Positions 1-52,688 of a stretch of DNA of 64,000 bases are shown one piece after another; within the stretch, counting starts at the first letter, position 1, and every line of letters begins with the position of its first letter. The stretch is from Candidatus Woesearchaeota archaeon (GTDB lineage: Archaea > Nanobdellota > Nanobdellia > Pacearchaeales > GW2011-AR1), in contig CAZNUV010000001.1 in the NCBI GenBank assembly GCA_964576755.1, positions 40,883-104,882 of the forward strand, read 5' to 3'. The translations under genes and the position numbers were made by a program. The notes under the pieces were generated by a model that saw only the letters and a list, made by a program, of their open reading frames with translations, was not told the DNA's origin and ran no database searches.

Positions 1-395
1 AAAAGATGGATTGGTTCAAAATAAAATGAACCAAACATAAAGACTAAAACAACAATTCTAAGGACATTAATTATAAACAGCAGGGAAAAGCTAAAAACTA
101 GAATTAAAGCATGTTTAATAGGCTTTAAATCAGAAATAGACATAATCAGTATGAACAATAGATAATATGCAGAACCTGCAACACATGCAGGAATTATCTG
201 AAAAATAATCCCTTGATAGAAAATTATATTCCCAAAAAGAGTAGTATTCCCAAAAATACTTATAATTTTAGAAACAAGAAAGATTGTTGGACTTGTAAAT
301 AATTTATAAAAAATCCAGATATTAAAAAGTCCAAAAAACAAGATTATAATGTATCTGAAAATAAGAGTTATAATCTTTTTTTTTATAGAATCCAT
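1..395 (-). CDS. archaeosortase/exosortase family transpeptidase, partial (C-terminus beyond window start)
   Basis: Hand translation of the reverse strand from ATG at 395 gives MDSIKKKIITLIFRYIIILFFGLF...IIPACVAGSAYYLL...NVLRIVVLVF. It is a polytopic membrane protein. It carries an exosortase/archaeosortase-like active-site Cys motif (PAC-x-G-S) and a conserved N-x-x-R motif. Not in the ORF track because it runs off the window. Confidence 0.6.
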   Translation of the reverse strand, partial: MDSIKKKIITLIFRYIIILFFGLFNIWIFYKLFTSPTIFLVSKIISIFGNTTLFGNIIFYQGIIFQIIPACVAGSAYYLLFILIMSISDLKPIKHALILVFSFSLLFIINVLRIVVLVFMFGSFYFEPIHL

Positions 396-478
396 ATAAA
401 ACAAAGAGAATTTATGTTTAAATAAGTTTCATAGGATAAAAAAATATTCCTTAAAACAAAAAAAAAGATTTAGAAGAA

Positions 479-2107
479 TTAAAATTCTTGGTGAGCTGGT
501 CTACTAGCAAGTTTTACTATTAAAACTATTACTATTAAAACTAAAAGAGCAATTATTCCAATAAGTAAAAATGCTCCTGCTGTTCCTAAGTTTTCTCCAA
601 GATTAGATAACCCTGCAAAACTTCCTGTAAACAATCCTGTTTTCTCTTCTATTGTTACTGTAACGGGTTGTGTCTTTGTTTGCCCATTAGAGATAACATT
701 AATTGTAAAAGATTGTGATCCTGAAACAGTTGGTCTTAATTTTATTACAACCTGACTTGTTTGATCTTGACCAATTGAACTAATTGAAGGGTCTACACTA
801 ACTAATTCTGCCCAAGATTCATATCCTGTTGGACTTACAATAAATTCTGAAGATGTATCTCTGTTAGTGATACTTACTTCAATACTCATTTCTTCTCCAA
901 CTTTTGCACCAGATAAAAGCCTAGCATTAATAACTGGTTCATCCCCAGTACAACTACCTAAGACCTTTAAATAGTATTCAAAGTCATCTTTTTCATCTGA
1001 GCTTTTATCATACTCATCGTCCTTATCATCATATTTAAACTCAGTTGTAAGTATAAATTTGTAAGATTTTTCATCTGCATTTTTTGGAATGTTAAATGAA
1101 AAGTCTACAGTATCTGAATCTCCAGAATCAAGATTTTCTATTTCTTTTTCAAGAGTTATCCCTAATTCTTTATTATAAAAAATAACCTTAACCTTATCTT
1201 CATCTTCATCTCCAATGTTATAAACTTTTGCTTCTAAATTAATAACAGAACCACAAGTTGTTGTGTCTACTGCATCTACTTCTTTAACAAGAACATCATT
1301 TCTGTTTTTATCAATAGAAACTGTTTCTTCTGTGCCTATTTCTTCTGCTCTTAAACTTGCACATTGTTTGTCTTCATCTCCATCTTCATAAACTTTAGCA
1401 TAGATTCTATAATTGCTTCCATCATTAACATCTGCAGAAATTTGGAAATTAAATGTTACTTTTTTAGATTCTCCATCATCTAAGCCTACTTCTTGTTCTA
1501 AATCATCTTCATCAGTTGCCCAATCACTAACTTCTTTTCCACTTGAATCAACTAAAATTAAGGCTACAATAGTATCAATATTATCATCATCATTTAAATT
1601 TTCAATTTTAACATCTAGTTCTATATTATCTAATGGTCTCCATTCCCATTCTTTATCATTCTCATCTTTTCTATCTTTTATATATTCAACACTTAATTCT
1701 GTTCCAACTTCACCATATTTACAAAACTCATAACCACTAGAGTCTGGTAAAATAGTTAATTTTCTTGTTTCAGAAGTAGCATCTGTAAGAGGGCCATCAC
1801 AATAAATATTCCAAGTATGATTTCCAATTGCAAGATTATTTGCAGTAATTGTATTTGTAGTTGTTTCATCAATAGCTGAAGTAGAAGAATAATGTAAACC
1901 ATCAATATTTAAATCACAAGTATAGTCTTCACCAGAAGTTACTGAAGAAAATCCAAATGTAAAACTAACATCTCTAGACATTGTTGTAGATCCATTTACT
2001 GGTGAAACCAAATTAATGCTAAAAGAGGGAACCGCACTTGTTAAAGTTAAACTTAAAACTAGTAATGCAAATATTCCGAAAAATGTGAACAATTTTTTGT
2101 TTTCCAT
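479..2107 (-). CDS. secreted acidic cell-surface protein (CARDB/Ig-like repeats) with Thr/Ser-rich linker and C-terminal TM anchor; candidate archaeosortase substrate
   Basis: N-terminal signal peptide (FGIFALLVLSLTLTSA). D/E-rich beta-rich repeats. C-terminus reads ...TGLFTGSFAGLSNLGENLGTAGAFLLIGIIALLVLIVIVLIVKLASRPAHQEF, a hydrophobic helix plus basic tail resembling PGF-CTERM-type sorting signals. Lies immediately upstream of, and co-oriented with, the archaeosortase gene. Confidence 0.7.
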   Translation of the reverse strand: MENKKLFTFFGIFALLVLSLTLTSAVPSFSINLVSPVNGSTTMSRDVSFTFGFSSVTSGEDYTCDLNIDGLHYSSTSAIDETTTNTITANNLAIGNHTWNIYCDGPLTDATSETRKLTILPDSSGYEFCKYGEVGTELSVEYIKDRKDENDKEWEWRPLDNIELDVKIENLNDDDNIDTIVALILVDSSGKEVSDWATDEDDLEQEVGLDDGESKKVTFNFQISADVNDGSNYRIYAKVYEDGDEDKQCASLRAEEIGTEETVSIDKNRNDVLVKEVDAVDTTTCGSVINLEAKVYNIGDEDEDKVKVIFYNKELGITLEKEIENLDSGDSDTVDFSFNIPKNADEKSYKFILTTEFKYDDKDDEYDKSSDEKDDFEYYLKVLGSCTGDEPVINARLLSGAKVGEEMSIEVSITNRDTSSEFIVSPTGYESWAELVSVDPSISSIGQDQTSQVVIKLRPTVSGSQSFTINVISNGQTKTQPVTVTIEEKTGLFTGSFAGLSNLGENLGTAGAFLLIGIIALLVLIVIVLIVKLASRPAHQEF

Positions 2108-2254: not shown

Positions 2255-2635
2255 ATGGTAAAGTCAAGAGAAAATTTAATTAGTGCATGGGCTTTCTTAA
2301 TTGGAGTAGTTTTAGCTATTCTAATTGGGATTTTTCAAAGAGTACTTGGCGGACCTTCAAGACTAATTATAAGTATTGTTTACACTGTTCTAGTTCTTTT
2401 AGGTTTATTGGTTGGTTTTCTAGTTGAAGGGGATAAAGACTCTACTACTTTTCTAATTGCAGCTCTTGCCTTAGTGATTGTAAGTGGTCTTGGCAAGGAT
2501 AGTCTAATATACATCTCTAATTTAAGTCCAATTACCTCCTATTTAAGTGAGGTTCTCTCTGCACTATTAATAATGTTTGTTCCAGCTACAATAATTGCAG
2601 CATTAAAAACAGTTTTCTCAATTACAAGTATATAG
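2255..2635 (+). CDS. small integral membrane protein, hypothetical
   Basis: 126-aa ORF with 3-4 predicted TM helices. Preceded by a TATA-like ggtttataaaat and an SD-like aagga. No antisense competitor. Confidence 0.5.
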   Translation: MVKSRENLISAWAFLIGVVLAILIGIFQRVLGGPSRLIISIVYTVLVLLGLLVGFLVEGDKDSTTFLIAALALVIVSGLGKDSLIYISNLSPITSYLSEVLSALLIMFVPATIIAALKTVFSITSI

Positions 2636-16424: not shown

Positions 16425-16551
16425 GCCCACATCGCATAATGGTATTGCACTGGCCTTGAAAACTTCAAGTTTTTCTTGGAGTTGCTCAGGAAACTGAGTT
16501 TCATGACAGCCAGGCCCTCTGGGTATCTCGGTTCGATTCCGAGTGTGGGCG
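16425..16551 (+). tRNA. tRNA-Ser (anticodon TGA), type II with long variable arm, about 47-nt intron at canonical 37/38 position
   Basis: Acceptor GCCCACA/TGTGGGC plus discriminator G. D-arm GCA-TAATGGTAT-TGC. Anticodon stem CTGGC/GCCAG, loop CTTGAA|A. Variable arm GCCCTCTGGGTAT. T-arm CTCGG-TTCGATT-CCGAG. The intron begins AACTTCAAG and pairs with the anticodon (BHB-like). TATA atttaaaata lies about 28 nt upstream. Confidence 0.75.
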
Positions 16552-37713: not shown

Positions 37714-40449
37714 ATGGAAGAAGAAATAAATAAAAGAAAAGAGAAAGTTTTAGATTTTTTAAAACAACCAACAGTTTGGGTTTTAGGATTTTTGATAATT
37801 GCTTTAATTTTAGGAGTTTATATTAGAAGCATCCCCATGCATATTAGGCCAGAAACTGGAAAACCAGGTCTGTGGGATATAACTACAGATACATGGACTC
37901 TTGGTCCAGATCTTGATCCATGGCTATTTTTAAGATCTGCTAAAGAAATTGTTGATACAGGCTCTATTGCTCAAATAGATGTCATGAGGAATGTTCCATT
38001 AGGGTTTGATACAACAAAGGAAACTCGACTACTTCCATATATGATTACTACAACTTATTGGATACTAAATATTTTTTCAAATGTTAATATTGAATATGCC
38101 GGAGTTATATTCCCAGTGATTATGTTTACTTTTACAATCTTAGTTTTTTTCTTATTTGTTAGAGAGATATTTATAACGAAAAATAAAAATTCAAAAATCA
38201 AGGCTAATATCATTTCCCTTATCTCAACATTTTTTATGATTGTTATACCTAGTCTTTTATCAAGAACTTTAGCAGGAATTCCAGAAAAAGAATCTGCTGG
38301 TTTCTGTTTTCTTTTTTTAGCGTTTTATTTATTTTTAAAGGCATGGAAATCTGAAAATTGGAAATTTGCTTCTTTTTTTGCAATAATTGCGGGAATTTCT
38401 ACTGCTACAATGGGGCTGATTTGGGGAGGTGTAAATTATATTTTTGTTACAATTGCAGTTTCTACATTTTTAGCATTTTTATTAAACAAGATAGATAAAA
38501 AAGAAACTTTAATTTATTCCCTCTGGCTTGTTTTTTCTTGGGCGGTAATGTTAATATTTTCTAATAGGTTTGATTTAAAGGGATTTATAGTTTCTCTTGA
38601 TACTGGACTTGCATTTCTTATTTTATTTATTCTTATTGTCCACTTAATACTGTGGAAAACAAAAATATCTAAACTGAAAATTTTAAGGAATTGTAAACTT
38701 CCAAAAAATATTACTTCTTTAATTATTTCAATAATTTTAGGGGTTTTACTCGTATCAGTATTATTTGGTCCAAATTTTATAATAGAAAAAATAACCGATT
38801 TAAACCAAATTTTATTTAAGCCAACTACAGGAAGATGGAACACTACTGTTGCAGAAAATAGACAACCTTATTTCTTAGAATGGGGTGCGAGTTTTGGGCC
38901 TTTTATCCCTAATGTTAAAAACAGTGCTATTTTGTTTTGGCTGTTCTTTGTGGGTTCGGTAGTATTATTTAAACAAATGTTAAAAAAGATAAAGAATAAA
39001 GATGCTTGGATTTTGACTGGACTTTATATTTTCTTTTTTTGCGGACTAGTCTTTTCAAGATATTCAGAACATCCAGCTTTGTTTGATGGTGAGAATTTTA
39101 TTAGTAAAGCTTTTTATTATTTTTCTGCATTATTATTAATAGGATTCTTAATATATTATTATTTTCAATACCATAAAAGGCAAGATAATAGTTTTGATTT
39201 AATACGGTTTGAATATCTACTCTTATTTTCCCTATTTATTTTAACATTATTCACAGCAAGAAGTGCGGTAAGACTGATCATGGTTTTAGCCCCAATAGCC
39301 CCTATCTTTGTAGGTTTTTTAATTTTTTATCTTGTAGATAAATTTATAAAATCTGAAGATGAGACAAAAAGAATTATATATAGTTCTCTAGCGATTGTAG
39401 TCATTTTGTTAAGTTTGTTCACATTTTGGACATACTATAATAGTGTTAAAGCACAAGCAAGCGGCATGATTCCTTCTTCATATAACCAACAATGGCAAAA
39501 AGCAATGCAATGGGTTAGAGAAAATACTAATGAACAGACAACAGTATTTGCACATTGGTGGGATTATGGATATTGGGTTCAATCTATAGGAAAAAGAGCA
39601 ACTGTTTTAGATGGTGGAAATGCAATAAAATTTTGGAATTATCTTATGGGGAGATATGTATTAACCGGAGACAACCAAGATGATGCTTTAGAATTTTTAT
39701 ATAATCACAATGCGACCCATTTATTAATAGATTCTACAGATATTGGAAAATATGGGGCATTTTCAAGTATTGGAAGTGATGAAGATTATGATAGATTTAG
39801 TTGGATTCCTGCAATGATTTATGATGAATCTCAAACAAAAGAAACTAATAGAGGTATTACAATTGTTTATCAAGGAGGATTTGGTATTGATGAAGATATA
39901 GTCTATGAACAGAATGGAACCAAGATATTTCTTCCTGCAGAAAAAACTGCAATAATCGGGATGGTTATTGAGACTATTCAGAATAATAATTCAATTGCAT
40001 TTGAACAGCCCCAATTAGCATTTTACTATCAAGGAAAACAGATAAATATTCCATTGAGATATATTTATTTTAAAGACCAATTTTACGATTTTAAAACAGG
40101 ATTAGAAGGAACAGCAGATATCATTCCAAAAGTAGATTCTAATGGTAAATTAAATATTGCTGGGGCCCTGATATATATCTCTCCAAGAGTTATGAGAGGT
40201 ATGCTTGCCCAAAAATACCTATTAGATGATCCATTTAATAATTTTCCAAATTTTAAACTAACCCATACTGAATCTAGTTTAGTAGTAGAGTCTCTAAATT
40301 CTCAAGGAACAAATCTTGGAGAATTTATTTATTATGGGGGAGTTCAAGGACCTATTAAAATCTGGGATATAGAATACACTGGAAAAGAAAAAATAGTGGA
40401 AGAATACTTAGATAAAGATTATTCAAAATATCTATCTTGGGAATTATAA
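37714..40449 (+). CDS. aglB: dolichyl-phosphooligosaccharide-protein glycotransferase AglB (archaeal STT3 oligosaccharyltransferase)
   Basis: 911 aa, 13 N-terminal TM helices. Hallmark WWDYGYW motif (AHWWDYGYWVQS). Large C-terminal soluble domain. Confidence 0.9.
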   Translation: MEEEINKRKEKVLDFLKQPTVWVLGFLIIALILGVYIRSIPMHIRPETGKPGLWDITTDTWTLGPDLDPWLFLRSAKEIVDTGSIAQIDVMRNVPLGFDTTKETRLLPYMITTTYWILNIFSNVNIEYAGVIFPVIMFTFTILVFFLFVREIFITKNKNSKIKANIISLISTFFMIVIPSLLSRTLAGIPEKESAGFCFLFLAFYLFLKAWKSENWKFASFFAIIAGISTATMGLIWGGVNYIFVTIAVSTFLAFLLNKIDKKETLIYSLWLVFSWAVMLIFSNRFDLKGFIVSLDTGLAFLILFILIVHLILWKTKISKLKILRNCKLPKNITSLIISIILGVLLVSVLFGPNFIIEKITDLNQILFKPTTGRWNTTVAENRQPYFLEWGASFGPFIPNVKNSAILFWLFFVGSVVLFKQMLKKIKNKDAWILTGLYIFFFCGLVFSRYSEHPALFDGENFISKAFYYFSALLLIGFLIYYYFQYHKRQDNSFDLIRFEYLLLFSLFILTLFTARSAVRLIMVLAPIAPIFVGFLIFYLVDKFIKSEDETKRIIYSSLAIVVILLSLFTFWTYYNSVKAQASGMIPSSYNQQWQKAMQWVRENTNEQTTVFAHWWDYGYWVQSIGKRATVLDGGNAIKFWNYLMGRYVLTGDNQDDALEFLYNHNATHLLIDSTDIGKYGAFSSIGSDEDYDRFSWIPAMIYDESQTKETNRGITIVYQGGFGIDEDIVYEQNGTKIFLPAEKTAIIGMVIETIQNNNSIAFEQPQLAFYYQGKQINIPLRYIYFKDQFYDFKTGLEGTADIIPKVDSNGKLNIAGALIYISPRVMRGMLAQKYLLDDPFNNFPNFKLTHTESSLVVESLNSQGTNLGEFIYYGGVQGPIKIWDIEYTGKEKIVEEYLDKDYSKYLSWEL

Positions 40450-40495
40450 TTTAATCTTAGACAAATTTTAAAAGCCTTAAATGTGTATTTAATTC

Positions 40496-41512
40496 ATGGA
40501 AATTATCTTATTTGTTTCAATAATAATAAGTTTCATTTTAACTATTGTTGTACTCCCAAAATGGATTAGAAAGTGTAAACAAACTGGACTTTTATGGGAA
40601 GATATGAACAAATATACTCATCCTAAGAATGTTGCAGGTTCTGGAGGAATTGTGGTTGTAATGGCGTTTATATTAGGGGTTTTAAGTTATATTGCGATAC
40701 GTACGTTTTTGATTATAAATCAAAATGGAATAACTACACAAATATTTTCTCTACTAACAGTGGTCTTAATTTTGTCAATCGTAGGTCTTACTGATGATTT
40801 ACTTGGTTGGAAACATGGAGGATTATCAGCTAAGATAAGAATTTTTTTAGCTCTTATTGCATCAATCCCCTTGGTAGTAATAAATGCTGGTTCTCAGACA
40901 ATAATGCTTCCATGGATTGGGACTATTAATTTAGGACTATTTTATACATTGATTATTCTTCCTTTAGGAGTTGCAGGAGCTACAACTGCGTTTAATTTTT
41001 TAGCAGGGTTTAATGGATTAGAAACAGGACAAGGAATAATCATTTTAACATTCCTTTCTTTTATTTCATATATCACTGGGACCACATGGTTAGCATTAAT
41101 TGGTCTAATTATGGTTTCTTCTTTAATTGCATTTTATTTTTATAATAGATTTCCGGCCAGGGTCTTTCCGGGGGATATACTTACTTATTCGGTTGGGGCA
41201 TTAATTGTAACCATGGCAATTTTAGGGAATTTTGAAAAGATTACAATATTTATTTTTATCCCATACATTATTGAGGGAATTTTAAAGGCTCGTGGAGGTT
41301 TAAAAAAACAATCTTTTGCAATACCAGATAAATATGGAAATCTAAAATTACCATATAAAAAAGTCTATAGTTTAACCCATTTATCAATTTTAATCCTAAG
41401 CAAGTTTAAAAGAAATGTAAGAGAAAGAGATGTGACTTATCTAATCTTTATCTTTCAAGTATTAATATGCCTAATAGCCCTTGTACTTTTTAAGAAAGTT
41501 CTATATATCTAA
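40496..41512 (+). CDS. UDP-GlcNAc:dolichyl-phosphate GlcNAc-1-phosphate transferase-like (MraY/WecA/GPT family, AglH-like)
   Basis: Polytopic protein. GLTDDLLGW, AFNFLAGFNGLETGQ (NxxNxxDGxDGL-like) and PGD motifs of the polyprenyl-phosphate hexose-1-P transferase family. Confidence 0.75.
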   Translation: MEIILFVSIIISFILTIVVLPKWIRKCKQTGLLWEDMNKYTHPKNVAGSGGIVVVMAFILGVLSYIAIRTFLIINQNGITTQIFSLLTVVLILSIVGLTDDLLGWKHGGLSAKIRIFLALIASIPLVVINAGSQTIMLPWIGTINLGLFYTLIILPLGVAGATTAFNFLAGFNGLETGQGIIILTFLSFISYITGTTWLALIGLIMVSSLIAFYFYNRFPARVFPGDILTYSVGALIVTMAILGNFEKITIFIFIPYIIEGILKARGGLKKQSFAIPDKYGNLKLPYKKVYSLTHLSILILSKFKRNVRERDVTYLIFIFQVLICLIALVLFKKVLYI

Positions 41513-41513
41513 A

Positions 41514-42443
41514 ATGACAGAAAAAATTTCAATTATTATACCCTGCAAAAAGATAGATTCTCAAACCAAAAAATGTATCTTAGAATGTTTAAAATTAGAT
41601 TATTCTAATTTTGAAATAATCGTTCTACCAGATAATTCTGATAAGGTAAAATACCCTAAAATAGTCAAAATAATTTCTACAGGCCTTGTTAAGCCTTCAA
41701 TAAAGAGGAATATTGCAATGGATAAATCTAATAGTGAATTTTTTGCATTTATAGATTCGGATGCATATCCAAAAAAAGATTGGTTAAAAAATGCTATTAA
41801 ATATTTTAAAAATGATAAAATTGGAATTGTTGGTGGACCAAATTTAACCCCTTCTGAAGGAAATTTTTGGGAAAAAATTTCAGGATATACACTTTCTAAT
41901 TTTTTTGTGAGTGGAAAGGCCTCTATACGTTATAAGATTTCTAATAATCAATTCGTTACAGAACTCCCTTCTTGTAATTATATCACAAGAAATAAGGCTG
42001 CTGAAAAGTATGATTCTAATTTTTTAACTGCAGAAGATACAAAATTTTGCTTTTCAGCTAGGAAAAAAGGATATAAAATATTATATGCAAACGATGTTAT
42101 AGTCTTTCATCATAGAAGAGATAGTTTAAAAAAACATCTAAAACAAATGTTTGTTTATGGAAGAGATAATCTTTGGCTTTTAAAAAAAGAGTTTTCTATA
42201 AATAAACTCCATTTTCTAATAACTCTTATAGGGATTATTGGTTTTTTATTGGGAATTATTTTTTCCTTTTTTAATCCGGTTATAAGAATTATTTTCCCGA
42301 TATTAATAACAATTTCTTTGTTTATGATTCTTTTCACTAGCATACACAAAAGTATAAAGATAACTTTTTTTGTTTTTATCACTTCAGTACTAACTCTTTT
42401 TGCCCATGGGCTAGGATCTTTATATGGTTTAATTTCAAAATAG
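41514..42443 (+). CDS. family 2 glycosyltransferase with C-terminal TM helices (Dol-P-sugar synthase-like)
   Basis: ISIIIPCKK...FAFIDSDAYP (DxD). GT-A fold pattern. Two C-terminal TM helices. ATG at 41514 is preferred over the overlapping track start. Confidence 0.8.
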   Translation: MTEKISIIIPCKKIDSQTKKCILECLKLDYSNFEIIVLPDNSDKVKYPKIVKIISTGLVKPSIKRNIAMDKSNSEFFAFIDSDAYPKKDWLKNAIKYFKNDKIGIVGGPNLTPSEGNFWEKISGYTLSNFFVSGKASIRYKISNNQFVTELPSCNYITRNKAAEKYDSNFLTAEDTKFCFSARKKGYKILYANDVIVFHHRRDSLKKHLKQMFVYGRDNLWLLKKEFSINKLHFLITLIGIIGFLLGIIFSFFNPVIRIIFPILITISLFMILFTSIHKSIKITFFVFITSVLTLFAHGLGSLYGLISK

Positions 42444-42485
42444 GATATTTTTAATAAAAACATTTATAATAGGTCCTTAATAAGG

Positions 42486-43946
42486 TTGAATATGAAAATA
42501 ATTATTGGATACCCTCCTACAGAATCTGAAAAGGGGGTTGCACTTTTAAGTCAAAATAGACAATTTCAATGGTTTAGCAATCCTAGTTATTTATTCCCAA
42601 TTGTTTTAGGCAGTGCTGCAACTATGTTAAAATCAAGAGGCAATAAGATACTCTGGCTAGATTGTATTGCTGAAAAAATTCAAATGGAAAAATTTTTTAG
42701 TATTCTAAAAAAGGAAAGCCCGGACTTATTTGTCTTTGAAACAAAAACACCAGTAATTAAACAACATTGGAATCTTATTAATCAACTTAAAAAAAACTTT
42801 CCAAAGATGAAGATAGTTCTTTTAGGAGACCATGTAACTTCATTCCCTAAAGAAAGTATGGAAAAATCAAAAGTAGACTTTGTTTTAACTGGAGGAGATT
42901 ATGATTTCTTACTAAGTGATCTTGTAGATTTTTTAAATAATAAAATAAAAAAAATTCCTAAAGGTATTTGGTATAGAAAAAATAATAAAATAATGAATTC
43001 TGGAAAATTTACACTAAATCAAAAATTAGACAATGCACCATTTATAGACCGTCAATTAACTAAATGGGAAAATTATCAAAAAGAATACAACATTAGCAGA
43101 AAGCCTTATTTTTATATTATGTCTGGAAGAGATTGTTGGTGGGGAAAATGCAAATTTTGTGCTTGGCCAAGATTATTCCCGTGTTTTAGAGTGAGAAGTG
43201 TTGAAAACGTCTTAAATGAAATTGGGCATTTAATAAAACAATATAATGCCAAGGAAATATTTGATGATTCTGGAACTCTAACTGTAGGAAAATGGTTAGT
43301 AGATTTATGTAATGGGTTAATCAAAAGAGGTTATAATAAAAAAATAAGATATTCTTGTAACATGCGTTTTGCAGCATTAAAACAAGAGGATTATTATCTA
43401 ATGAAAAAAGCTGGGTTTAGATTGTTAAAGTTTGGATTAGAAAGTGCTAATCAATCTACCTTAGATAGATTAAATAAAGGTGTTAAAATAAAAGATATTC
43501 TTGAAGGTTGTAAAATGGCTAAAAAGGCAGGATTAACTGTCCATTTAACAATGATAGTAGGATATCCTTGGGAAACAAAACAAGATGCATTAAAAACATT
43601 TGAATTAGCCAAAAAATTAATGCAATCAGGACTTGCAGATGTATTACAATCAACAGTTTTGATTCCTTATCCTGGAACTCCTCTTTGGGAAGAAGCAAAA
43701 AAGAATGACTGGTTTTTATTTAACCCTGAAGATTATGAGAAATATGATATGCGGAGCCCTGTATTAAAGACTAAAAACTCTAATGCAAATGATGTTGCTT
43801 CTGTCTGTGGGCAGATTTATACTATCTTTTTGACACCCAAATATATCTTTGCAAGAATTAAATCTATCCGTTCTTGGGACGACATTATGTTAAACTTAAG
43901 AGGAATTAAAGCAGTATTTGGACATTTAAAGGACTTTTGGAAATAA
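42486..43946 (+). CDS. cobalamin-binding domain radical SAM protein (class B-like), paralog 1
   Basis: N-terminal Rossmann/B12-binding-like region. Cluster CWWGKCKFC (CX4CX2C variant). Radical SAM core (FGLESANQ). Confidence 0.7.
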   Translation: MNMKIIIGYPPTESEKGVALLSQNRQFQWFSNPSYLFPIVLGSAATMLKSRGNKILWLDCIAEKIQMEKFFSILKKESPDLFVFETKTPVIKQHWNLINQLKKNFPKMKIVLLGDHVTSFPKESMEKSKVDFVLTGGDYDFLLSDLVDFLNNKIKKIPKGIWYRKNNKIMNSGKFTLNQKLDNAPFIDRQLTKWENYQKEYNISRKPYFYIMSGRDCWWGKCKFCAWPRLFPCFRVRSVENVLNEIGHLIKQYNAKEIFDDSGTLTVGKWLVDLCNGLIKRGYNKKIRYSCNMRFAALKQEDYYLMKKAGFRLLKFGLESANQSTLDRLNKGVKIKDILEGCKMAKKAGLTVHLTMIVGYPWETKQDALKTFELAKKLMQSGLADVLQSTVLIPYPGTPLWEEAKKNDWFLFNPEDYEKYDMRSPVLKTKNSNANDVASVCGQIYTIFLTPKYIFARIKSIRSWDDIMLNLRGIKAVFGHLKDFWK

Positions 43947-44711
43947 AAATTTTGATACAGTAGAAAATTCGTATTTTTGTTTTTTACAAAAAAGAATATA
44001 AGACTCTAATAAATTTAATAGCTCTTTTCCATTCTTTCTTTTTATTATAAGCGGTAACTTAAATGGTTTTAAATCTGAAAATTCCCAGGGATGAAATATA
44101 ATCATAGTATAATTAGAAAAAAGATTATTCAATTTTGTGAAAACCTTAGGGTATAATGGTCCGAGATTTTTAAATGCAAACCAAGCAATTGGTAATCTCA
44201 ATAGAGGTAAAACAGATGGAGGGATTTCTACAATATTTCCAAGATAATGAACACTTCTTTTTTTAAACAAGTTTATGTATTTTCCTGGAAGAAATGTTGG
44301 GTGAATTGAAGAGTCATATTCAAAACCTAAATTTTCTAATCTTTGAATATCTTTTATCTGAAATCTTGGAGCCCTAAACCCCCTGATTTTTAATTTTAAC
44401 TTTTCTAACTGAGCCTTAGATTGACTGATTCTTTTAAAATTATTTTTATCTAAATAATTATCTTTATGCTCTAATCCGTGACAAGCAATTTCATGCCCTT
44501 TTTTTTGTAGGGATTTAATAAATCCGGGATATTTTTTGGCAAAAACCGCAGTTGTGAAAAATGTTGCTTTAACCTTATGTTTATCTAAAAGTTTATCTAA
44601 CTCGATTAATCCTCTCATAGATTGTTCAAATTTTTCATTTACCTTAGAAACAGGTAATTCATCAAATTCTTCTGTATCAAAAGTTAGGAGAATTTTCATT
44701 TTACATTTCAT
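43926..44711 (-). CDS. polysaccharide deacetylase (NodB homology domain)
   Basis: MKILLTFDTEEFD (TFDD motif region)...CHGLEH... is the carbohydrate esterase 4 pattern. Confidence 0.7.
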   Translation of the reverse strand: MKCKMKILLTFDTEEFDELPVSKVNEKFEQSMRGLIELDKLLDKHKVKATFFTTAVFAKKYPGFIKSLQKKGHEIACHGLEHKDNYLDKNNFKRISQSKAQLEKLKLKIRGFRAPRFQIKDIQRLENLGFEYDSSIHPTFLPGKYINLFKKRSVHYLGNIVEIPPSVLPLLRLPIAWFAFKNLGPLYPKVFTKLNNLFSNYTMIIFHPWEFSDLKPFKLPLIIKRKNGKELLNLLESYILFCKKQKYEFSTVSKFLFPKVL

Positions 44712-45397
44712 CTTAAAAATCTTAATACAAACAATCTTTTAAGCATTCCGGGAAGATACTTTAATCTAAAAGTACTAAACTTTTCATATTTAAACGGAAG
44801 GTATTTTTCTGCGAATCTATACTTTTTCTTTTTTGCACGGTATAAAAATTCTATATCAAAATCAAAACCTGTACAAGTAAAATGATTACCTATCTCTTTC
44901 CAGACTTCTTTTTTAAAGAATTTTGCTCCTGCCTGTGTATCTCTAAACTCTAAATTAAACAAAATTTTAGATACAATAAACCCCCCTAAAGATAAAAACC
45001 TTCTAATTATAGAGTCTTGTACCCTTTTTGTTCCTCTTAAGTATTTTGAAGCCAAAACAATATCATAACTTTCTAAGTGGTTTATCATTTCCAATACCTT
45101 TGTTAAATTAAAGGGGTTATCTGCATCTAAAAAACCAATATAATCTCCATTTGCATTATTAAAACCCGCTATAAGGGCATAACCTTTTCCTCTTTGAGGT
45201 ATTTCTATCACCTTCACAGGTAACTTTTTAGATAAGTTTTGTATAATTTTAGGAGTATTATCAGTACAATCATTACAAACAACAATAATTTGAATTTTTT
45301 TGAATTTTTTTGAAAAAAAGTTGTAATATTCCCTTATAGATTTTTCTATCACTTTTCCGGAATTATGGGCTGGAACTATTAGTGAAAAAGATTTCAT
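44708..45397 (-). CDS. family 2 glycosyltransferase, dolichyl-phosphate mannose/glucose synthase-like (DPM1-like)
   Basis: FSLIVPAHNSGKVIEK...VVCNDCTDNT...GKGYALIAGF...FLDADNPF. Confidence 0.85.
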   Translation of the reverse strand: MKSFSLIVPAHNSGKVIEKSIREYYNFFSKKFKKIQIIVVCNDCTDNTPKIIQNLSKKLPVKVIEIPQRGKGYALIAGFNNANGDYIGFLDADNPFNLTKVLEMINHLESYDIVLASKYLRGTKRVQDSIIRRFLSLGGFIVSKILFNLEFRDTQAGAKFFKKEVWKEIGNHFTCTGFDFDIEFLYRAKKKKYRFAEKYLPFKYEKFSTFRLKYLPGMLKRLFVLRFLR

Positions 45398-45481
45398 TAG
45401 ATTTCAGAGATTAAGCATATATAAAATTATTGGATTTATACTCTTAGAAAGGTTTTTTAATTAATTTTCATCCCCTATTCT

Positions 45482-46438
45482 ATGGGTACATGGAATATAT
45501 TAAAAAAACTTTTTCCATTAATCGGAATTTCAATATTTATATACTTAATATTAAAATTAGACATTAAAAATATCTCTCAAACTATTTTAAATGCCAATCT
45601 CGGTTTCCTTGTTATAGTTATTCTCCTCGTGATATTATCTGTTTCATTACAAACATTAAAATGGTGGATTATTGCACTAAACCAAGAGATGAATATCCCA
45701 TTTAAAAAAGCTGTAAAAATAAATTTAATGTCAGATTTTTATGGATTTGTTACACCTTCAAAATTGGGTACAATTATGAGAGTAGAGTATTTAAAAAAAT
45801 ACGGTACTGTGGGAAGAGGGATTACAAATTTTACGCTAGATAAAATACTAGATATCTGTTCATTATTTTTCTTATCGTTATTGTTTATTTTTGTTTTTAA
45901 AGGGATATTTCCAATTTATTTTAGAATGTTAATGTTTGGAATAGTTATTCTAATAGTTCTAATTTTTCTTTTTCTAAAGGAAAGAGCTATCTTATCTATT
46001 TTAAAATGGATGTATAACAATTTTCTTCCGAAAAAGTTTAAATTAAAGGCTAAATCAACCTTTCATGCGTTATATGAAAATTTTCCTAAAAAATCCGTTT
46101 TGATTCAAGCCCTTTTATTGAATACTATTACCTGGATTGTAGCTTATTTTATCTCTTACTTTATAGGCCTATCTTTAGGAATAAATGTTCATTGGATTTA
46201 TTTCTTAGCCATATTTCCAATTGCAACCTTAATTGCCCAACTACCTATAACTGTAAATGGACTTGGAACTAGAGAAGCAGTATTAATTCAACTATTTGGA
46301 TTGTTAAATGTTGAAGCGACAAAGGTTTTTTCAATGTCAATTTTAGGTCTTTTAATTGCAGGAATTGTCCCAGTAATGGTTGGACTCTTTTTTATACTTA
46401 AGGGGGAAAATAAAAAAAATGAAATACACCCTATTTAA
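45482..46438 (+). CDS. UPF0104 / flippase-like (LPG synthase TM-domain-like) membrane protein
   Basis: 318 aa, about 8 TM helices. Family commonly partnered with GT2 enzymes. Confidence 0.5.
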   Translation: MGTWNILKKLFPLIGISIFIYLILKLDIKNISQTILNANLGFLVIVILLVILSVSLQTLKWWIIALNQEMNIPFKKAVKINLMSDFYGFVTPSKLGTIMRVEYLKKYGTVGRGITNFTLDKILDICSLFFLSLLFIFVFKGIFPIYFRMLMFGIVILIVLIFLFLKERAILSILKWMYNNFLPKKFKLKAKSTFHALYENFPKKSVLIQALLLNTITWIVAYFISYFIGLSLGINVHWIYFLAIFPIATLIAQLPITVNGLGTREAVLIQLFGLLNVEATKVFSMSILGLLIAGIVPVMVGLFFILKGENKKNEIHPI

Positions 46439-47690
46439 GGAAGCTGACAAAAAAATTGAAAAAGATATGCAAGAGATAATTAAAGAAATAAGAAGAAAAA
46501 TTCCGGAAGTTATTTCTATATTCCTTACAGGAGGATTTTCCCGTGGAGAAGGTCCTGTAAAAAAGGTACGAGAAGGATTTTATCCCTATAATGATTATGA
46601 CATTCAAGTTATAACTCAGAAAAAATTAAGTAAAGAAGAGACAGATAACATTTCTATTGAAATTTCAAAAAAATTAGGTTACAGAGGTATTGGTTATTTT
46701 TATAATTTTAAAAAAGAAGAACAAAAATTTAAAGAGAATTTCTATATAGACTTAAAGGTTGATACTCCAAAAGATTTAGAAACCCTTTTGCCAAGAATAA
46801 GGACTATTGAATTAAAAGAGAACTCTAAATTATTATGGGGGAAAGATGTACGGAGTATTATTCCCAATTATCAACTTAAAGAAATACCTCTCGCAGAGGG
46901 GGCTAAATTATTATTGGATAGAATGAGTCAACTCATCCAGTATTATTCTCTTAAAAAAGAAATGGATAAAGAATTTATGACATACATTATCCAACAAGCC
47001 TATGCTGCATGTTGTACTTCCCTCTTATTATTATCAAAGAAATATGAAATTGGTTATTTAAAATCTATGAAAATTTTTAAAGAGAATTATAAAACCGACT
47101 TTCCAGAACTATATAAAAAATCTCCAAATCTAGATAAAAAAATAGAAGAATTTATTAAATGGAAATCTAACCCAGAAAAATTACCAAATAGAAATATAGA
47201 TGAAGAATGGTTTATTGTAAAAGATAATATCCTTGAAGTTACAAAATACTTTTTTAGTAAATTTCTAAATAAGAAGATTAATACACTAGAAGAACTCTCA
47301 AATGGAATTCTTGGAATGAGAGAACAATTTTACCTGCCTTTTTTGAATGCAATTATAAAGAATAAATTAAAGATTAATCTTGGAAAAATAAACATACTCT
47401 TACTACCTTTAGTTTCCTTGATTCTAAAATATAAATACTACCAAAGATTGAAAAAATTTAAAATGAATAAGATAAACATTTTCCTTGAAAAAAGTCCAGA
47501 GTTAATAATCTTTGGAAGTTTGATTTTTTTAATTGGATCTATTGATAAAAATGGGGTTAATGAAGACCTTCTTAAAAAAGGTAGAGAGTTATTAGGAAAA
47601 GTATATAACTGCAAAGCAAAGAATTGGGAAGAAACCAGTTTAGAGTATGCAAATGCTTATATAACATTTTTTCTTCAAAAAATAATATGA
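46419..47690 (+). CDS. nucleotidyltransferase-fold domain protein, hypothetical
   Basis: TGGFSRGEGPV...YNDYDIQVI resembles the minimal nucleotidyltransferase GS...D.D motif. ATG at 46419 preferred. Confidence 0.45.
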   Translation: MKYTLFKEADKKIEKDMQEIIKEIRRKIPEVISIFLTGGFSRGEGPVKKVREGFYPYNDYDIQVITQKKLSKEETDNISIEISKKLGYRGIGYFYNFKKEEQKFKENFYIDLKVDTPKDLETLLPRIRTIELKENSKLLWGKDVRSIIPNYQLKEIPLAEGAKLLLDRMSQLIQYYSLKKEMDKEFMTYIIQQAYAACCTSLLLLSKKYEIGYLKSMKIFKENYKTDFPELYKKSPNLDKKIEEFIKWKSNPEKLPNRNIDEEWFIVKDNILEVTKYFFSKFLNKKINTLEELSNGILGMREQFYLPFLNAIIKNKLKINLGKINILLLPLVSLILKYKYYQRLKKFKMNKINIFLEKSPELIIFGSLIFLIGSIDKNGVNEDLLKKGRELLGKVYNCKAKNWEETSLEYANAYITFFLQKII

Positions 47691-48784
47691 AATCTCAGTT
47701 AATCATTTGTATTGATGGTATGGGAAAAGACTTAATTTCAAAGGAAAATACACCTTTCTTATATGATTTTGGAAAGAAAAATTGTTCTTTAGAATTAAAG
47801 ACATTATTTGCTTTTACTGGATTAGAATATTGCTTTTTTACTGGAGAAAATCCTGAAAAGTCTAAAATTTGGTTAGAATTTATTAAATCTGATAGATCTA
47901 TTTTTAATAATTCTGTCTTAAAATTCCTTTCGTTCAACAAAAAAATAAGAACTTATTTTGGAGCTTTAATACAACTAATAAATGGCCGTACTTTTATTTC
48001 TGGATTACACAATATTCCAAAAAATAAATTAAAATATTTTGATTCTTCTATCAAACAAGGTCTATGGAAATTAGATTTTTTTAAAAATAAAAAATTCTGT
48101 TTCTATAAATGGCCTTTTTTTGTAACTGAAAACAAGAAAAAAATGATTTTGAAATATGAATCAGATGGGGGTCGGTTAAAAAGATTGCTAAATGCTAATA
48201 AAAAGGAAATTTATTATACCCAACTAATGGAAATTGATAAGACAATACATAAATATGGGAAAAAACATAAAAAAACAAAAGAAGTTTTGAAAAAGATAGA
48301 TTCTCTTATTGAAATCTATGCTCAGGATTACTTAAATAAAAATAAATCTGGAGAGATATTTATCTGGTCAGACCATGGTTTTGCAGATGTTAAAAATTAT
48401 ATAAATCTCTTTAAGTTTTTGCCGAATAGAAAGGACTATACCTATTTTATTGCTGGAACAACAGTTCATTTTTGGTATAAAAATAAAGAAATTAAAAAAG
48501 AAATACTAAAAAGTCTAAAATCAGTTAAAAATTTAAATATTTTGGATAAAAATTCTGCAAAAAAGTACCATATTCCTTTAGATGAAAAATACGGAAATCT
48601 TATTTTTTATCTAACAAAAAATAATTATTTTTTCCCAAATTTCTATCAAATGAGGGATTTAGAGAGATTTAAGAGCATGCATGGATATCCTGACAATAAA
48701 GAACTTAATGGATTTTTAATAACAAACAAAAGGATAAAACAAAAGGCTTTAAAAATAGAAGATGTTATTGAAATTTTGCGATGA
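47687..48784 (+). CDS. alkaline-phosphatase superfamily protein (type I phosphodiesterase/NPP-like)
   Basis: LIICIDGMGKDLI (metal-binding D near N-terminus)...IWSDHGF (DHG motif). ATG at 47687 overlaps the upstream stop (ATGA). Confidence 0.55.
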   Translation: MKSQLIICIDGMGKDLISKENTPFLYDFGKKNCSLELKTLFAFTGLEYCFFTGENPEKSKIWLEFIKSDRSIFNNSVLKFLSFNKKIRTYFGALIQLINGRTFISGLHNIPKNKLKYFDSSIKQGLWKLDFFKNKKFCFYKWPFFVTENKKKMILKYESDGGRLKRLLNANKKEIYYTQLMEIDKTIHKYGKKHKKTKEVLKKIDSLIEIYAQDYLNKNKSGEIFIWSDHGFADVKNYINLFKFLPNRKDYTYFIAGTTVHFWYKNKEIKKEILKSLKSVKNLNILDKNSAKKYHIPLDEKYGNLIFYLTKNNYFFPNFYQMRDLERFKSMHGYPDNKELNGFLITNKRIKQKALKIEDVIEILR

Positions 48785-50259
48785 AACAACACAAAAAAAG
48801 ACCAGAAGTTTGTTTAATAAACCCCCCTTTAGATAAAAAGACTTCAAGCAAATTTCCCATGTCAGGGGTTCCATTAGGTATTGCATGTCTAGCCGCATAT
48901 CTAAGAGAGAAAAATATCCCTTCTCAAGTGATAGATGCCCCAATTATGGGATATAATATCCCTCAAACAGCAATAAATGCTATTAAAAGTGGGGCAAAGA
49001 TCATAGGTATAAGTTGTTTAACTGAGAATAGATATGCTGCACTAAAAACCTTAAAAGAAATTAAAAAAATAAGGCCTCAAATAATTACAATAATTGGAGG
49101 GTTACATGCTACTTTTTCTGATGAATCAATACTAAAAAATTATCCTTTTGTGGACATTGTTGTTAGGGGAGAGGGGGAAAAAACTCTCTATGAATTAGTA
49201 AAAGAATTTCAAAAGAAAAATCCTAATTTAAAAAAAATAGATGGGATTTCATATAAAGAAGACAAAAAAATTATTGTTAATCAACCAAGAGCTTTTATGA
49301 GTGAAATAGAAAGTCTTCCATATCCTGCATATGACTTATTCCCTATGAAAAGATACCCTCTTCCTCCAGATGTTAAGATAAAAATTAATCAAACTGCCCA
49401 AGTAACAACTTCAAGGGGATGTCCAATGGGTTGCAAATTTTGTGAAACAACACACGCTTGGGGGAAAAATATTAGAAGTACTTCTGCAAAAAAACTTTTT
49501 GAAATTATAGAACATTTGTATAAAACATATGGTATTGATTATATCCGGTTTGCTGATGATTTATTTACAATGAGACGAAGTAAGGTAATGGAATTCTGTG
49601 AATTGCTTATTGAAAGTAAACTCCCAATAAAATTTAGAATACAGGCGAGGGTGGATACAGTAGACTTGGAGGAATTAAATTTACTTAAAAAAGCCGGATG
49701 TGATCTAGTAGAATATGGTGCAGAATCTGGTTCAAATAAAGTTTTAGAAGCAGTTGGAAAAAATATTACTATTCAAAAAATAAAAAAGGCAGTGGATATT
49801 ACTAGGCAAGCAGGAATTGAAGTAAAATATTTCTTAATTGTAGGATCTTTAGAAGAAACTCCAAAAGAAACCTGGGAAACATTTGAACTAATAAAGAATA
49901 CTCGTCCTGATTGGATTGGAATAAATCCATTAACTATTTACCCTGGAACTGCAGTCTATGAAATTGCAACAAAACAAAATTTGGTTAATGAAGACATATG
50001 GCTAAAATATATTAATCCAAAAACAGGCAATTCTCCACTTTATAATAAAAATTATTCTGATAAAGAATTGATATTTCTTGCCCAATTAGGACATGTTTGG
50101 GGTTGTAGAAATTCTCCAAAAAGAGAAGAGTATCCGTTTATAGAAAAAGTTTTAGCAAAAATACTAAATGAAAAATTTGCAAAGATACTTGTGAAAAATA
50201 AACTAATAAGAAAAATAAGTGCAAATATTGCATGGGTATTTTCTGATCTTTTACAATGA
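48781..50259 (+). CDS. cobalamin-binding domain radical SAM protein (class B-like), paralog 2
   Basis: N-terminal B12-binding-like domain (VIDAP...IGISCLT). SRGCPMGCKFC (CX3CX2C). Confidence 0.8.
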   Translation: MKQHKKRPEVCLINPPLDKKTSSKFPMSGVPLGIACLAAYLREKNIPSQVIDAPIMGYNIPQTAINAIKSGAKIIGISCLTENRYAALKTLKEIKKIRPQIITIIGGLHATFSDESILKNYPFVDIVVRGEGEKTLYELVKEFQKKNPNLKKIDGISYKEDKKIIVNQPRAFMSEIESLPYPAYDLFPMKRYPLPPDVKIKINQTAQVTTSRGCPMGCKFCETTHAWGKNIRSTSAKKLFEIIEHLYKTYGIDYIRFADDLFTMRRSKVMEFCELLIESKLPIKFRIQARVDTVDLEELNLLKKAGCDLVEYGAESGSNKVLEAVGKNITIQKIKKAVDITRQAGIEVKYFLIVGSLEETPKETWETFELIKNTRPDWIGINPLTIYPGTAVYEIATKQNLVNEDIWLKYINPKTGNSPLYNKNYSDKELIFLAQLGHVWGCRNSPKREEYPFIEKVLAKILNEKFAKILVKNKLIRKISANIAWVFSDLLQ

Positions 50260-51266
50260 GAATATTGGTAACTGGTGCAACAGGATTTATTGGAAGTCAT
50301 TTAGTTGAAAAACTAGCTAAAGAAGGCCATAAAATAAGAATACTTGTGAAAAAAAAGGAAGAGAATATTAGTCTTAGAAATGAAACTCTAAAGATACTCA
50401 AAGAATTAAATGTAGATATGCAAATAGGAGATTTGGAGGATAGATTATCTTTAGAGGGAATTACAAAAGACATAGATGTTGTTTTTCATTTAGGAGCTAT
50501 TGCAAGGCCAATGGCAATACCTAATAGAAGGTACTTTGAAGTAAATGAAAAAGGGACATTAAACTTATTAGAAGTCTGTAAAAATAAAAAAATAAAAAAA
50601 ATAGTTATTATGAGTAGTGTCTCTGCTGTAGGTCCTACTAAGGATGGTAATGCTGTAAATGAAAAAACAAGGTGTATGCCTGTGGATACTTATGGTTGGA
50701 GCAAATTAGCTCAAGAAAAAGTTGCTGAAAAATATTTTAAAGAATATAACATGCCTATTGTTTTATTAAGACCTCCAATGGTTTTTGGACCAAGAGATAT
50801 GGAGATGCTAAAATTATTTAAGGCTGTTGATAAAAGATTTTTTCCTATTCATTGTGATAAAAAAGTAATGGAATTTCTGTATGTTAAAAATTTAGTTAAC
50901 GCATGTATCCTAGCTATGGAAAATGGGAAAAACGGAGAAACATATCATATAACTAATGGAGAACATTATAGTATCAACGAGATAATTAGGGCTATGGAAA
51001 AGGCTAAAAAAAAGAGAGTGTTTCCAATAAAGTTTCCTAAGTGGAGTTTTGTTTTAGTGGGAGGATTTTTAGAAATTTTAGGTAATATTTTTAATTTTAG
51101 ACCCCCATTCAGACATGATACTATTAAATGGATGACTGAAAAATTCTGGTATAGTGATATGTCTAAAGCTAGAAGAGAATTAGATTATAATCCTAAGATT
51201 AGCTTAGAAGAAGGAATAAGGGAAACAGCTGAATATTATGAAAAAAGGGGGTTAATAAATAGATAA
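50256..51266 (+). CDS. NAD-dependent sugar epimerase/dehydratase (SDR family)
   Basis: ILVTGATGFIGSHLVEKL Rossmann motif. YxxxK region (YGWSK). Confidence 0.85.
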   Translation: MRILVTGATGFIGSHLVEKLAKEGHKIRILVKKKEENISLRNETLKILKELNVDMQIGDLEDRLSLEGITKDIDVVFHLGAIARPMAIPNRRYFEVNEKGTLNLLEVCKNKKIKKIVIMSSVSAVGPTKDGNAVNEKTRCMPVDTYGWSKLAQEKVAEKYFKEYNMPIVLLRPPMVFGPRDMEMLKLFKAVDKRFFPIHCDKKVMEFLYVKNLVNACILAMENGKNGETYHITNGEHYSINEIIRAMEKAKKKRVFPIKFPKWSFVLVGGFLEILGNIFNFRPPFRHDTIKWMTEKFWYSDMSKARRELDYNPKISLEEGIRETAEYYEKRGLINR

Positions 51267-51284
51267 TAGGGAATTATTTTTAAA

Positions 51285-52688
51285 ATGATAGACATATTAT
51301 TAATTAATCCTTCCAGTATTGCTGTCCAAAACAATCCTATCCCTTTTGGGTTAACTTATATGGCAAGTTATTTAGAAGAAAATGGTTTTTCAGTAAGAAT
51401 CCTTGATCTTTCAGTTCATAAAATGAATGAAAAACAAGTAATGAATTACATAAAAAAAGTAAATCCAAAAAATGTTGGGATATCTTGTATGTCTGTACAT
51501 ATTAATTTTGTAAAAAACATTTCTAAAAAAATAAAAGAAGATTTTAAAGGAATTAGAATAATTGTTGGGGGGATACACCCCACTGCTCTTCCAGAAAAAA
51601 GTTTGAAAGAAATGGAAAATGTAGATGTTTTTGTTTTAGGGGAAGGAGAAGAAACTATTCTAGATTTAATGAAAAATAAAAAACTAGAAAAAATTAATGG
51701 AATAGCTTATATTAAGAAATGTAAATTAAAAATAAATAGTATTAGGGGGTTTATAGAAGACCTTGATAAATTACCATTTCCTGCAAGACATTTACTCCCC
51801 GATATTAAAAATTATAGCCTTGGGTTTGATTGGGAAGGAAGAAAACCAGATGCGACAATATTTAGTAGCAGAGGATGTCCATTCAATTGTATTTATTGTG
51901 CAAGTAAAGTTATGTGGAATCAAAGAGTAAGATTTAGATCTGCTGAAAATGTCTTAAAAGAGATAGACTTTTTAGTTAAAAAATATAAAATAAAAGAAGT
52001 TTTGTTTTATGATGATCATTTTCTGCTCAATAAAAAAAGATTGGGAGATATCTGCAAGGGATTAATAAAAAGAAATTATGATTTAACCTGGTGTTGTTTA
52101 TCTCGAGTTGATAGTATTGATTTTAAGACACTAAAACTAATGAAACAATCTGGATGCCATATGATTAGTTTTGGTGTTGAAAGCGGAAGCCAAAGAATCC
52201 TAGAAAATTTGGGGAAAAACGTAAAAGTTGAAACTATCACAAAAGCTTTTGATATTTGTAAAAAAGTTGGTATAAATACAAAAGCCTCTTTTATTTTTGG
52301 CTCTCCTGGAGAAGATTTTGAAAGTATAAAAGAAACACAAAACCTAATTAAAAGAATACTCCCTGATTATGTTTGGTTATTTATAATGACTCCCATGCCT
52401 GGGACTAAATTGTATAAATTGCATGAAGAAACAGGTATTGCTTCAGATGATTGGGGAATGTATGACCAAACAACATATGATAAGTTTTATGGGACTAATC
52501 TTAAATATAGAGACCTAAGAAAGGCTGTTGCAGAAACCTATAAATCATATTATTTAAGTTTAAACTATTTAATATCTCAAATAAAAAAATTGAGTTTTAG
52601 AAAAATAAAGGTATATTTTAGTTTATTAAGAAGAGTAGTTTATGTTATGAACTATATCAATGTTGGAAGGGTAAAGAAAAAGGCATGA
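51285..52688 (+). CDS. cobalamin-binding domain radical SAM protein (class B-like), paralog 3
   Basis: SSRGCPFNCIYCAS (CX3CX2C). N-terminal B12-binding-like domain. FGVESGSQ. Confidence 0.8.
   Translation: MIDILLINPSSIAVQNNPIPFGLTYMASYLEENGFSVRILDLSVHKMNEKQVMNYIKKVNPKNVGISCMSVHINFVKNISKKIKEDFKGIRIIVGGIHPTALPEKSLKEMENVDVFVLGEGEETILDLMKNKKLEKINGIAYIKKCKLKINSIRGFIEDLDKLPFPARHLLPDIKNYSLGFDWEGRKPDATIFSSRGCPFNCIYCASKVMWNQRVRFRSAENVLKEIDFLVKKYKIKEVLFYDDHFLLNKKRLGDICKGLIKRNYDLTWCCLSRVDSIDFKTLKLMKQSGCHMISFGVESGSQRILENLGKNVKVETITKAFDICKKVGINTKASFIFGSPGEDFESIKETQNLIKRILPDYVWLFIMTPMPGTKLYKLHEETGIASDDWGMYDQTTYDKFYGTNLKYRDLRKAVAETYKSYYLSLNYLISQIKKLSFRKIKVYFSLLRRVVYVMNYINVGRVKKKA

Follow-up and report, generated by a model that had tools for sequence, protein, structure and literature searches.

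A predicted dedicated pacearchaeosortase/PACE-CTERM pair in the genome of an uncultivated DPANN archaeon

The stretch of DNA analysed here (the window; 64,000 nucleotides, G+C 29%) comes from a Candidatus Woesearchaeota archaeon (GenBank assembly GCA_964576755.1, contig CAZNUV010000001.1, positions 40,883 to 104,882 of the forward strand), and its first 2,107 positions hold two genes on the minus strand. The upstream gene (479..2107) encodes a 542-residue protein of the PACE-CTERM family of surface proteins, which we refer to as the target. It is followed, after a short spacer, by a gene for a pacearchaeosortase (3..395) of which the window edge leaves the first 131 of 190 codons. An earlier note on this DNA had described a 542-residue acidic secreted protein with a signal peptide, CARDB/Ig-like repeats, a Thr/Ser-rich linker and a C-terminal hydrophobic helix with a basic tail, next to an edge gene carrying the motifs IPACVAGS and N-x-x-R, and had proposed that the two form a dedicated sortase/substrate pair, possibly of a variant subtype with the tripeptide AGAF/GSF in its signal.

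The target is encoded by an intact open reading frame (ORF; stop codon 479-481) and is acidic (pI 4.18; 101 Asp and Glu residues vs 44 Lys and Arg). It matches the NCBIfam model NF033506 (PACE-CTERM-PROT, curated name 'putative S-layer protein') at 320.2 bits, above the membership cutoff of 110, over model positions 206-620 of 627; because the E-value is 3.1e-95, the match to this hidden Markov model (HMM) is not a matter of chance. At the N terminus, hydropathy, conservation and an AlphaFold2 (AF2) model predict a Sec signal peptide spanning residues 1-25 (2033..2107, minus strand), which is made up of MENKK, a hydrophobic core and TSA, with VP after the predicted cleavage point. In particular, the hydrophobic segment covers residues 4-27 at the hydropathy peak, AF2 places a helix at residues 5-21, and residues 24-25 form an 'SA' site of the signal-peptidase type that hardly varies across homologues, S24 being conserved in at least 90% of them. 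Judged from hydropathy and conservation, cleavage would occur at this SA.

The AF2 model of the target (mean pLDDT, the predicted local distance difference test, 80.9; built on 34 homologues) comprises the signal helix, all-beta domains at residues ~28-122, 126-257, 262-385 and 390-487, a low-confidence linker at 488-508 and a helix at 509-534. The third beta-sandwich contains a CARDB domain (residues 271-352; 1052..1297, minus strand; Pfam PF07705, 31.4 bits, cutoff 22.7), and the fourth contains a HYDIN/VesB-like Ig domain (residues 401-486; 650..907, minus strand; Pfam PF22544, 27.4 bits, cutoff 25.5) and terminates in a QPVxVxI strand, whose Q-P-V-S-V-x-I columns are conserved among 74 targets aligned from related loci. 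The first domain (1742..2026, minus strand) is hypervariable, with a mean identity of 16% vs 36-41% for domains 2-4 among 33 homologues; it is modelled at lower confidence, and the first 205 positions of NF033506 are left unmatched by this region. It is probably the distal, outward-facing end of the protein, and its hypervariability would be consistent with diversification of an exposed distal domain, driven by host contact or by evasion of viruses. When the model was compared with the PDB by Foldseek, the matches were generic Ig-like arrays (HYDIN and the MG domains of alpha-2-macroglobulin), with no S-layer-diagnostic fold among them. The earlier description of the protein thus holds in its acidic, secreted character, signal peptide, repeats (as four beta-sandwich domains) and C-terminal helix with basic tail. 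The Thr/Ser-rich linker is the part that fell: the true linker, EEKTGLFTGSFAGLSNLGENLGT, which joins the last beta-strand to the helix, is Gly-rich, 21-23 residues long and modelled as disordered, and the S/T-rich stretch belongs mostly to the fourth Ig-like domain.

The edge ORF translates without stops, begins MDSIKKK and encodes a very hydrophobic, polytopic protein that contains IPACVAGS and NVLR (Cys71, Asn110 and Arg113 in the 131-residue partial protein), NVLR being the N-x-x-R motif of the earlier note. The complete enzyme, of 190 residues, is found at L001:11713-12282, L001 being a longer public copy of this contig (ENA, 145 kb) identified by an exact-sequence match to the same 542-residue protein. 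Against the NCBIfam pacearchaeosortase model NF033505 (cutoff 80), the partial enzyme scores 100 bits and the full-length enzyme 153.4 bits; with an E-value of 5.7e-45 for the latter, this match cannot be put down to chance. The full-length enzyme likewise scores above the cutoff of TIGR04178, the exosortase/archaeosortase signature (26.5 vs 23 bits). The next-best models are ArtE (TIGR04124; 28.7 bits, cutoff 95) and ArtD (TIGR04175; 22.8 bits, cutoff 125), so the enzyme misses both cutoffs and is a member of neither family, and no ArtA model is among its NCBIfam matches at E <= 1.

Cys71 (183..185, minus strand), in IPACVAGS, is the predicted catalytic nucleophile. It is invariant in an alignment of 30 homologues (42-62% identity), as are Asn110 and Arg113 of the N-x-x-R motif (Arg113 at 57..59, minus strand) and His130 (6..8, minus strand). 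Since exosortases and archaeosortases are inferred to use Cys, Arg and His in catalysis (bioRxiv 10.1101/2023.06.07.544157), Cys71 together with Arg113 and His130 is the predicted catalytic set of the enzyme. In the AF2 model (mean pLDDT 88.9), two N-terminal helices are followed by a short beta-meander (residues 51-66), a short helix that starts at the Cys, long helices that carry N110/R113 and H130, and an amphipathic C-terminal helix.

The archaeosortase HMMs were the check that the earlier note had set in advance, with a generic CAAX or CPBP protease, or an unrelated polytopic protein whose motifs are coincidental, as the alternative. Such an identity could draw on two null results. Pfam Exosortase_EpsH (PF09721) scores below threshold for the partial enzyme (13.6 vs 25.7 bits) and gives no match at E <= 0.01 for the full-length one, and no solved structure is related to the enzyme by sequence profile or by fold. 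We attribute the PF09721 miss to the pacearchaeosortase family being too divergent for the Pfam model; one enzyme homologue (P0009) does carry a precomputed PF09721 match. The scores above the NF033505 and TIGR04178 cutoffs, with ArtE and ArtD as the next best, stand against this identity, and the enzyme matches no CAAX, CPBP or Abi protease family in Pfam or NCBIfam at E <= 1. The HMM results rule out a generic CAAX/CPBP protease, and we give next to no credence to this explanation as a whole.

The pairing of the two genes recurs across genomes. With one genome scanned per species, relatives of the enzyme turn up in 334 genomes, and the locus counts given here cover the best 80 of these, with targets at the loci found by HMMs built from homologues. 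A same-strand target lies upstream of the sortase gene in 75 of the 80 loci, and in 75 of the 76 that have enough upstream DNA for one to be seen; in four of the five exceptions, the DNA upstream is shorter than 520 bp. The sole testable locus without an upstream target, L060:5644-6552, comes from a single-cell genome (Nanoarchaeota SCGC AAA011-D5); here the sortase reading frame stays open over 303 codons, back to the preceding stop upstream, and a protein resembling the S_layer_C protein described below is still near. In 30 of the 75 pairs the two genes are immediate neighbours, in 36 a single gene on the opposite strand stands between them, and the other 9 have a shorter gap or an unrelated gene there. 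Homologues occur in metagenome-assembled genomes (MAGs) of Candidatus Pacearchaeota and Nanoarchaeota, where NCBI names some of them 'pacearchaeosortase' and 'putative S-layer protein'. Typical pairs are also present in three MAGs labelled bacterial (L016, Patescibacteria; L024, Vicingus; L079, Omnitrophota), which are most likely mis-binned DPANN contigs.

The relation between enzyme and target is also one-to-one at each locus. When searched with an HMM of the C-terminal 62 residues from 74 targets, each locus yields a single ORF, and no second signal-bearing protein was found in the 64-kb window, in L001 or near any of the 76 sortases. Consistent with this, a C-terminal-helix heuristic returned no second substrate candidate in the window or in L001. 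Within the DNA examined, the two genes thus make up what is, by its sequence features, a dedicated one-enzyme/one-target system, and the sequence-only proposal of a dedicated pair was sound. The earlier note had also held that a lack of other proteins sharing the C-terminal motif would speak against the pair. A single signal-bearing protein per locus is indeed what we find, but this expectation does not apply to one-to-one sorting systems, because gene adjacency is the accepted evidence for pairing in such systems (bioRxiv 10.1101/2023.06.07.544157).

The C-terminal sorting region of the target (residues 491-542; 482..637, minus strand) is recognized by the HMM of 74 target C-termini at 68 bits (E 1e-20). 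It shows the tripartite organization of motif, hydrophobic helix and basic residues; in order, it consists of a GLFTGSFAG motif, a Gly-rich spacer, F513, the helix, K532 and the tail ASRPAHQEF. The sorting-signal transmembrane helix spans residues 510-531 (515..580, minus strand; Kyte-Doolittle peak 3.7, within the AF2 helix at 509-534), and the basic residues beyond it are K532 and R536. Among the 74 aligned targets, the C-termini share a G-[FL]-x-G-[IL]-[TF]-G stretch after the Q-P-V-S-V-x-I strand, then a variable spacer, then an entry to the helix marked by Asn in 50 and next by an aromatic residue (W, Y or F; F513 in the window) in 69. About 19 hydrophobic residues follow, then a K or R that is invariant (74 of 74; K532 in the window), then further basic residues. 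These conserved features are not a tripeptide of the kind that the earlier note had named, and GSF and AGAF each overlap one of them.

Two flavours of the signal can be told apart. The commoner reads ...GITGNxISExNWYLWGIGALNVIL...RVAKK, stops there and matches NF033506 at 52 bits. The flavour in the window reads ...GLFTGSFAGLSNLGENLGTAGAFLLIG...VKLASRPAHQEF and has no NWYLW...LN helix start. Its cytoplasmic tail (482-514) carries an extension of about 10 residues that ends in an aromatic residue, usually as -EF (also -QF, -EY or -AY), and this is shared by 18 of the 74 targets; conservation of the extreme C terminus on a segment that would supposedly be discarded is unexpected. Neither flavour matches the PGF-, PEP- or PEF-CTERM models, and when the window tail, which contains no PGF, was scanned against CTERM models at E <= 10, NF033506 was the sole match. 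We take the window signal to be a diverged flavour of the PACE-CTERM signal, on the strength of these alignments. A comparison of the sortases that go with the two flavours yielded two columns only, and these are weakly discriminating.

Taken together, these findings make it very probable that the locus encodes a dedicated pacearchaeosortase/PACE-CTERM pair with ArtA-like processing, in an AT-rich DPANN archaeon of the Pacearchaeota/Woesearchaeota radiation. In the mechanism we propose, the acidic 542-residue protein would be directed to Sec export by its N-terminal signal peptide and retained transiently in the membrane by its C-terminal helix, with the four Ig-like domains extracellular and the hypervariable first domain most distal. 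The 190-residue polytopic enzyme would recognize the tripartite C-terminal signal within the membrane, and Cys71, aided by Arg113 and His130, would attack to form an acyl-enzyme intermediate with release of the helix and basic tail. If the analogy with Haloferax ArtA holds, this intermediate would probably be resolved onto the amine of a membrane lipid, resulting in a lipid-anchored surface protein. For ArtA, experiments have shown that C-terminal cleavage is coupled to lipid anchoring, its substrates are lipid-modified, and the proposed lipid acceptor is archaetidylethanolamine (PMC6098224, PMC7157517). The sequences themselves show homology, conservation and synteny, whereas export, cleavage and its position, lipid attachment and any S-layer role of the target are predictions. 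Two genes of this uncultivated DPANN archaeon thereby gain names and a function that can be tested.

Several observations weigh against the proposed pair mechanism. The window tail scores 18 bits against the signal region of NF033506 (positions 574-620), where the canonical tail scores 52. The glycine motif is separated from the helix by a variable spacer of 3-12 residues, unlike the abutting PGF and PEP motifs, and is degenerate in the window's subclade. None of the papers searched mentions 'pacearchaeosortase' or 'PACE-CTERM'. It is believed that many DPANN archaea do not make their own lipids, which bears on the lipid acceptor and sharpens the question of the anchor. Finally, the 'S-layer' label on the target is uncertain because a better candidate, a protein with a Pfam S_layer_C domain, lies four genes away.

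The weak motif, spaced off the helix in the window's subclade, and the conserved -EF extension, odd for a discarded segment, would suit a different explanation, namely that the helix is a permanent, uncleaved anchor and that the archaeosortase homologue acts elsewhere or has a non-catalytic role in assembly. This explanation has to contend with the invariance of the catalytic residues, with linkage of the pair that persists over about 40-60% sequence divergence, in 75 of the 76 loci where it could be assessed, and with the absence of an alternative substrate candidate near any of the 76 sortases, and we regard it as very unlikely. The dedicated pair with ArtA-like processing remains the reading we prefer.

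The pair is already known, in that NCBIfam curates both families, and it is an ordinary system; the variant subtype suggested by the earlier note is real insofar as the signal matches no PGF-, PEP- or PEF-CTERM model, and is not new. Since the NCBI annotation pipeline would label both genes automatically, this is no new kind of system, and what novelty remains is in the diverged flavour of the signal and in the conserved envelope cluster described below. Like the curated NF033505/NF033506 pair, the window pair has the same gene order, Cys/Arg/His set, tripartite C terminus and DPANN lineages; it differs in the hypervariable N-terminal domain, which leaves the start of the target model without a match, and in a signal that lacks the N-W-Y-L-W-G-I-G-A-L-N helix start and ends in the roughly 10-residue tail with -EF. 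With the ArtA/PGF-CTERM system of Haloferax volcanii it shares the TIGR04178 superfamily of polytopic membrane cysteine enzymes with a conserved Cys and Arg, and substrates built of motif, helix and basic tail, which for ArtA include the S-layer glycoprotein. ArtA, however, has nine substrates in H. volcanii, and artA is not reported beside a substrate gene, whereas the window system is one-to-one and adjacent; PGF abuts the helix, whereas the window target has no PGF and has a spacer before the helix; and the window pair is known from sequence. ArtE (TIGR04124) and ArtD (TIGR04175) share the compact architecture, and the window enzyme aligns end to end with these models of about 150 positions, but far under both cutoffs. 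The JDVT-CTERM/MrtJ system (myxosortase family) likewise has one target per proteome and tandem genes (bioRxiv 10.1101/2023.06.07.544157), but it is bacterial and its enzyme has an unrelated fold (that of a Rce1/CPBP-like intramembrane protease).

The spacer between the target and sortase genes, read directly from the sequence, is 83 nt long (396..478, minus strand). It contains a T9 run (458-466), a T7 run (438-444) and TTTAAA (417-422), 27 nt before the sortase ATG. The T runs may be an archaeal oligo-T terminator and TTTAAA the TATA box of a separate promoter, an arrangement under which the target could be expressed strongly and the enzyme weakly.

In 36 of the 75 paired loci, the gene that lies between target and enzyme, on the opposite strand, encodes a PAP2-family phosphatase (~205 residues; PF01569, 72.5 bits). 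Examples are L005, L015 (L015:3213-3830, minus strand), L019 and L022, with 32 other loci, and the PAP2 gene is never elsewhere within 6 kb of these loci. No NCBIfam model names this gene specifically, its weak best matches being undecaprenyl-diphosphatases. The placement of a lipid-phosphate phosphatase between the members of the pair hints at a role in anchor chemistry. The gene is rarer with the -EF flavour (2 of 18 vs 33 of 56; Fisher p = 4e-4, with shared ancestry not controlled for), and neither the window nor L001 contains a PAP2 homologue.

Other genes around the pair are conserved as well. On one flank, comparison of the 80 loci reveals genes for L37ae, prefoldin and SepF and a divergent membrane-protein gene. 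In the window, a 126-residue protein with about four hydrophobic helices is encoded at 2255-2635 (plus strand), divergent from the target gene; it has no family match, and 57 of the 80 loci carry a homologue of it within 6 kb of the sortase. On the other flank, beyond window position 1 (L001:12762-16796), are genes for Cys-containing signal-anchored proteins of 239 residues (72 of 80 loci) and 194 residues (68 of 80), and adjoining these is the gene for an 867-residue Pfam S_layer_C (PF05124) protein with a signal peptide and no C-terminal anchor (59 of 80). The pair and the 239-residue, 194-residue and S_layer_C genes look like a conserved envelope gene cluster, in which the lattice itself may in fact be built of the S_layer_C protein. 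The PAP2 phosphatase, the two signal-anchored proteins and the S_layer_C protein are starting points for work on how ultrasmall symbionts build their envelopes.

This neighbourhood bears on whether a lipid is attached at all. The enzyme might act as a protease only, so that the helix is cut and the target is shed, or passed to a lattice held by proteins. An anchor-less S_layer_C protein and two conserved signal-anchored neighbours could retain a released protein, the window has no lipid-synthesis gene adjacent to the pair, and neither there nor in L001 is there a PAP2 homologue; moreover, one-step transpeptidation by ArtA is itself unsettled (bioRxiv 10.1101/2023.06.07.544157). The same source nonetheless infers for transpeptidation the Cys/Arg/His set that is matched here, ArtA substrates do carry lipid (PMC6098224, PMC7157517), and the phosphatase between the pair in 36 related loci points to lipid chemistry. 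We consider proteolysis without lipid attachment rather unlikely. A larger scheme raised by the same genes, which we judge improbable, would make the ArtA-like pair one arm of a conserved two-part envelope module in Pacearchaeota-like DPANN archaea: the lipid-tethered Ig-array would serve as a SlaB-like membrane-proximal stalk that holds the lattice of the anchor-less S_layer_C protein, PAP2, between the genes in about half of the lineages, would handle the lipid acceptor, and the window lineage would use a second, uncurated signal flavour without PAP2.

Farther into the window, a glycosylation-type cluster (37714-52688) encodes an STT3/AglB oligosaccharyltransferase (911 residues), GT4 and GT2 transferases, an LPG_synthase_TM protein, a type I phosphodiesterase, an NAD-dependent epimerase and three B12-binding radical SAM enzymes. 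Despite this AglB cluster, heavy N-glycosylation of the target is unsupported, because the target has only two N-x-S/T sequons. At 16425-16551 (plus strand), Rfam calls a tRNA of 127 nt (45 bits) where ARAGORN reports none; this is probably an intron-containing archaeal tRNA.

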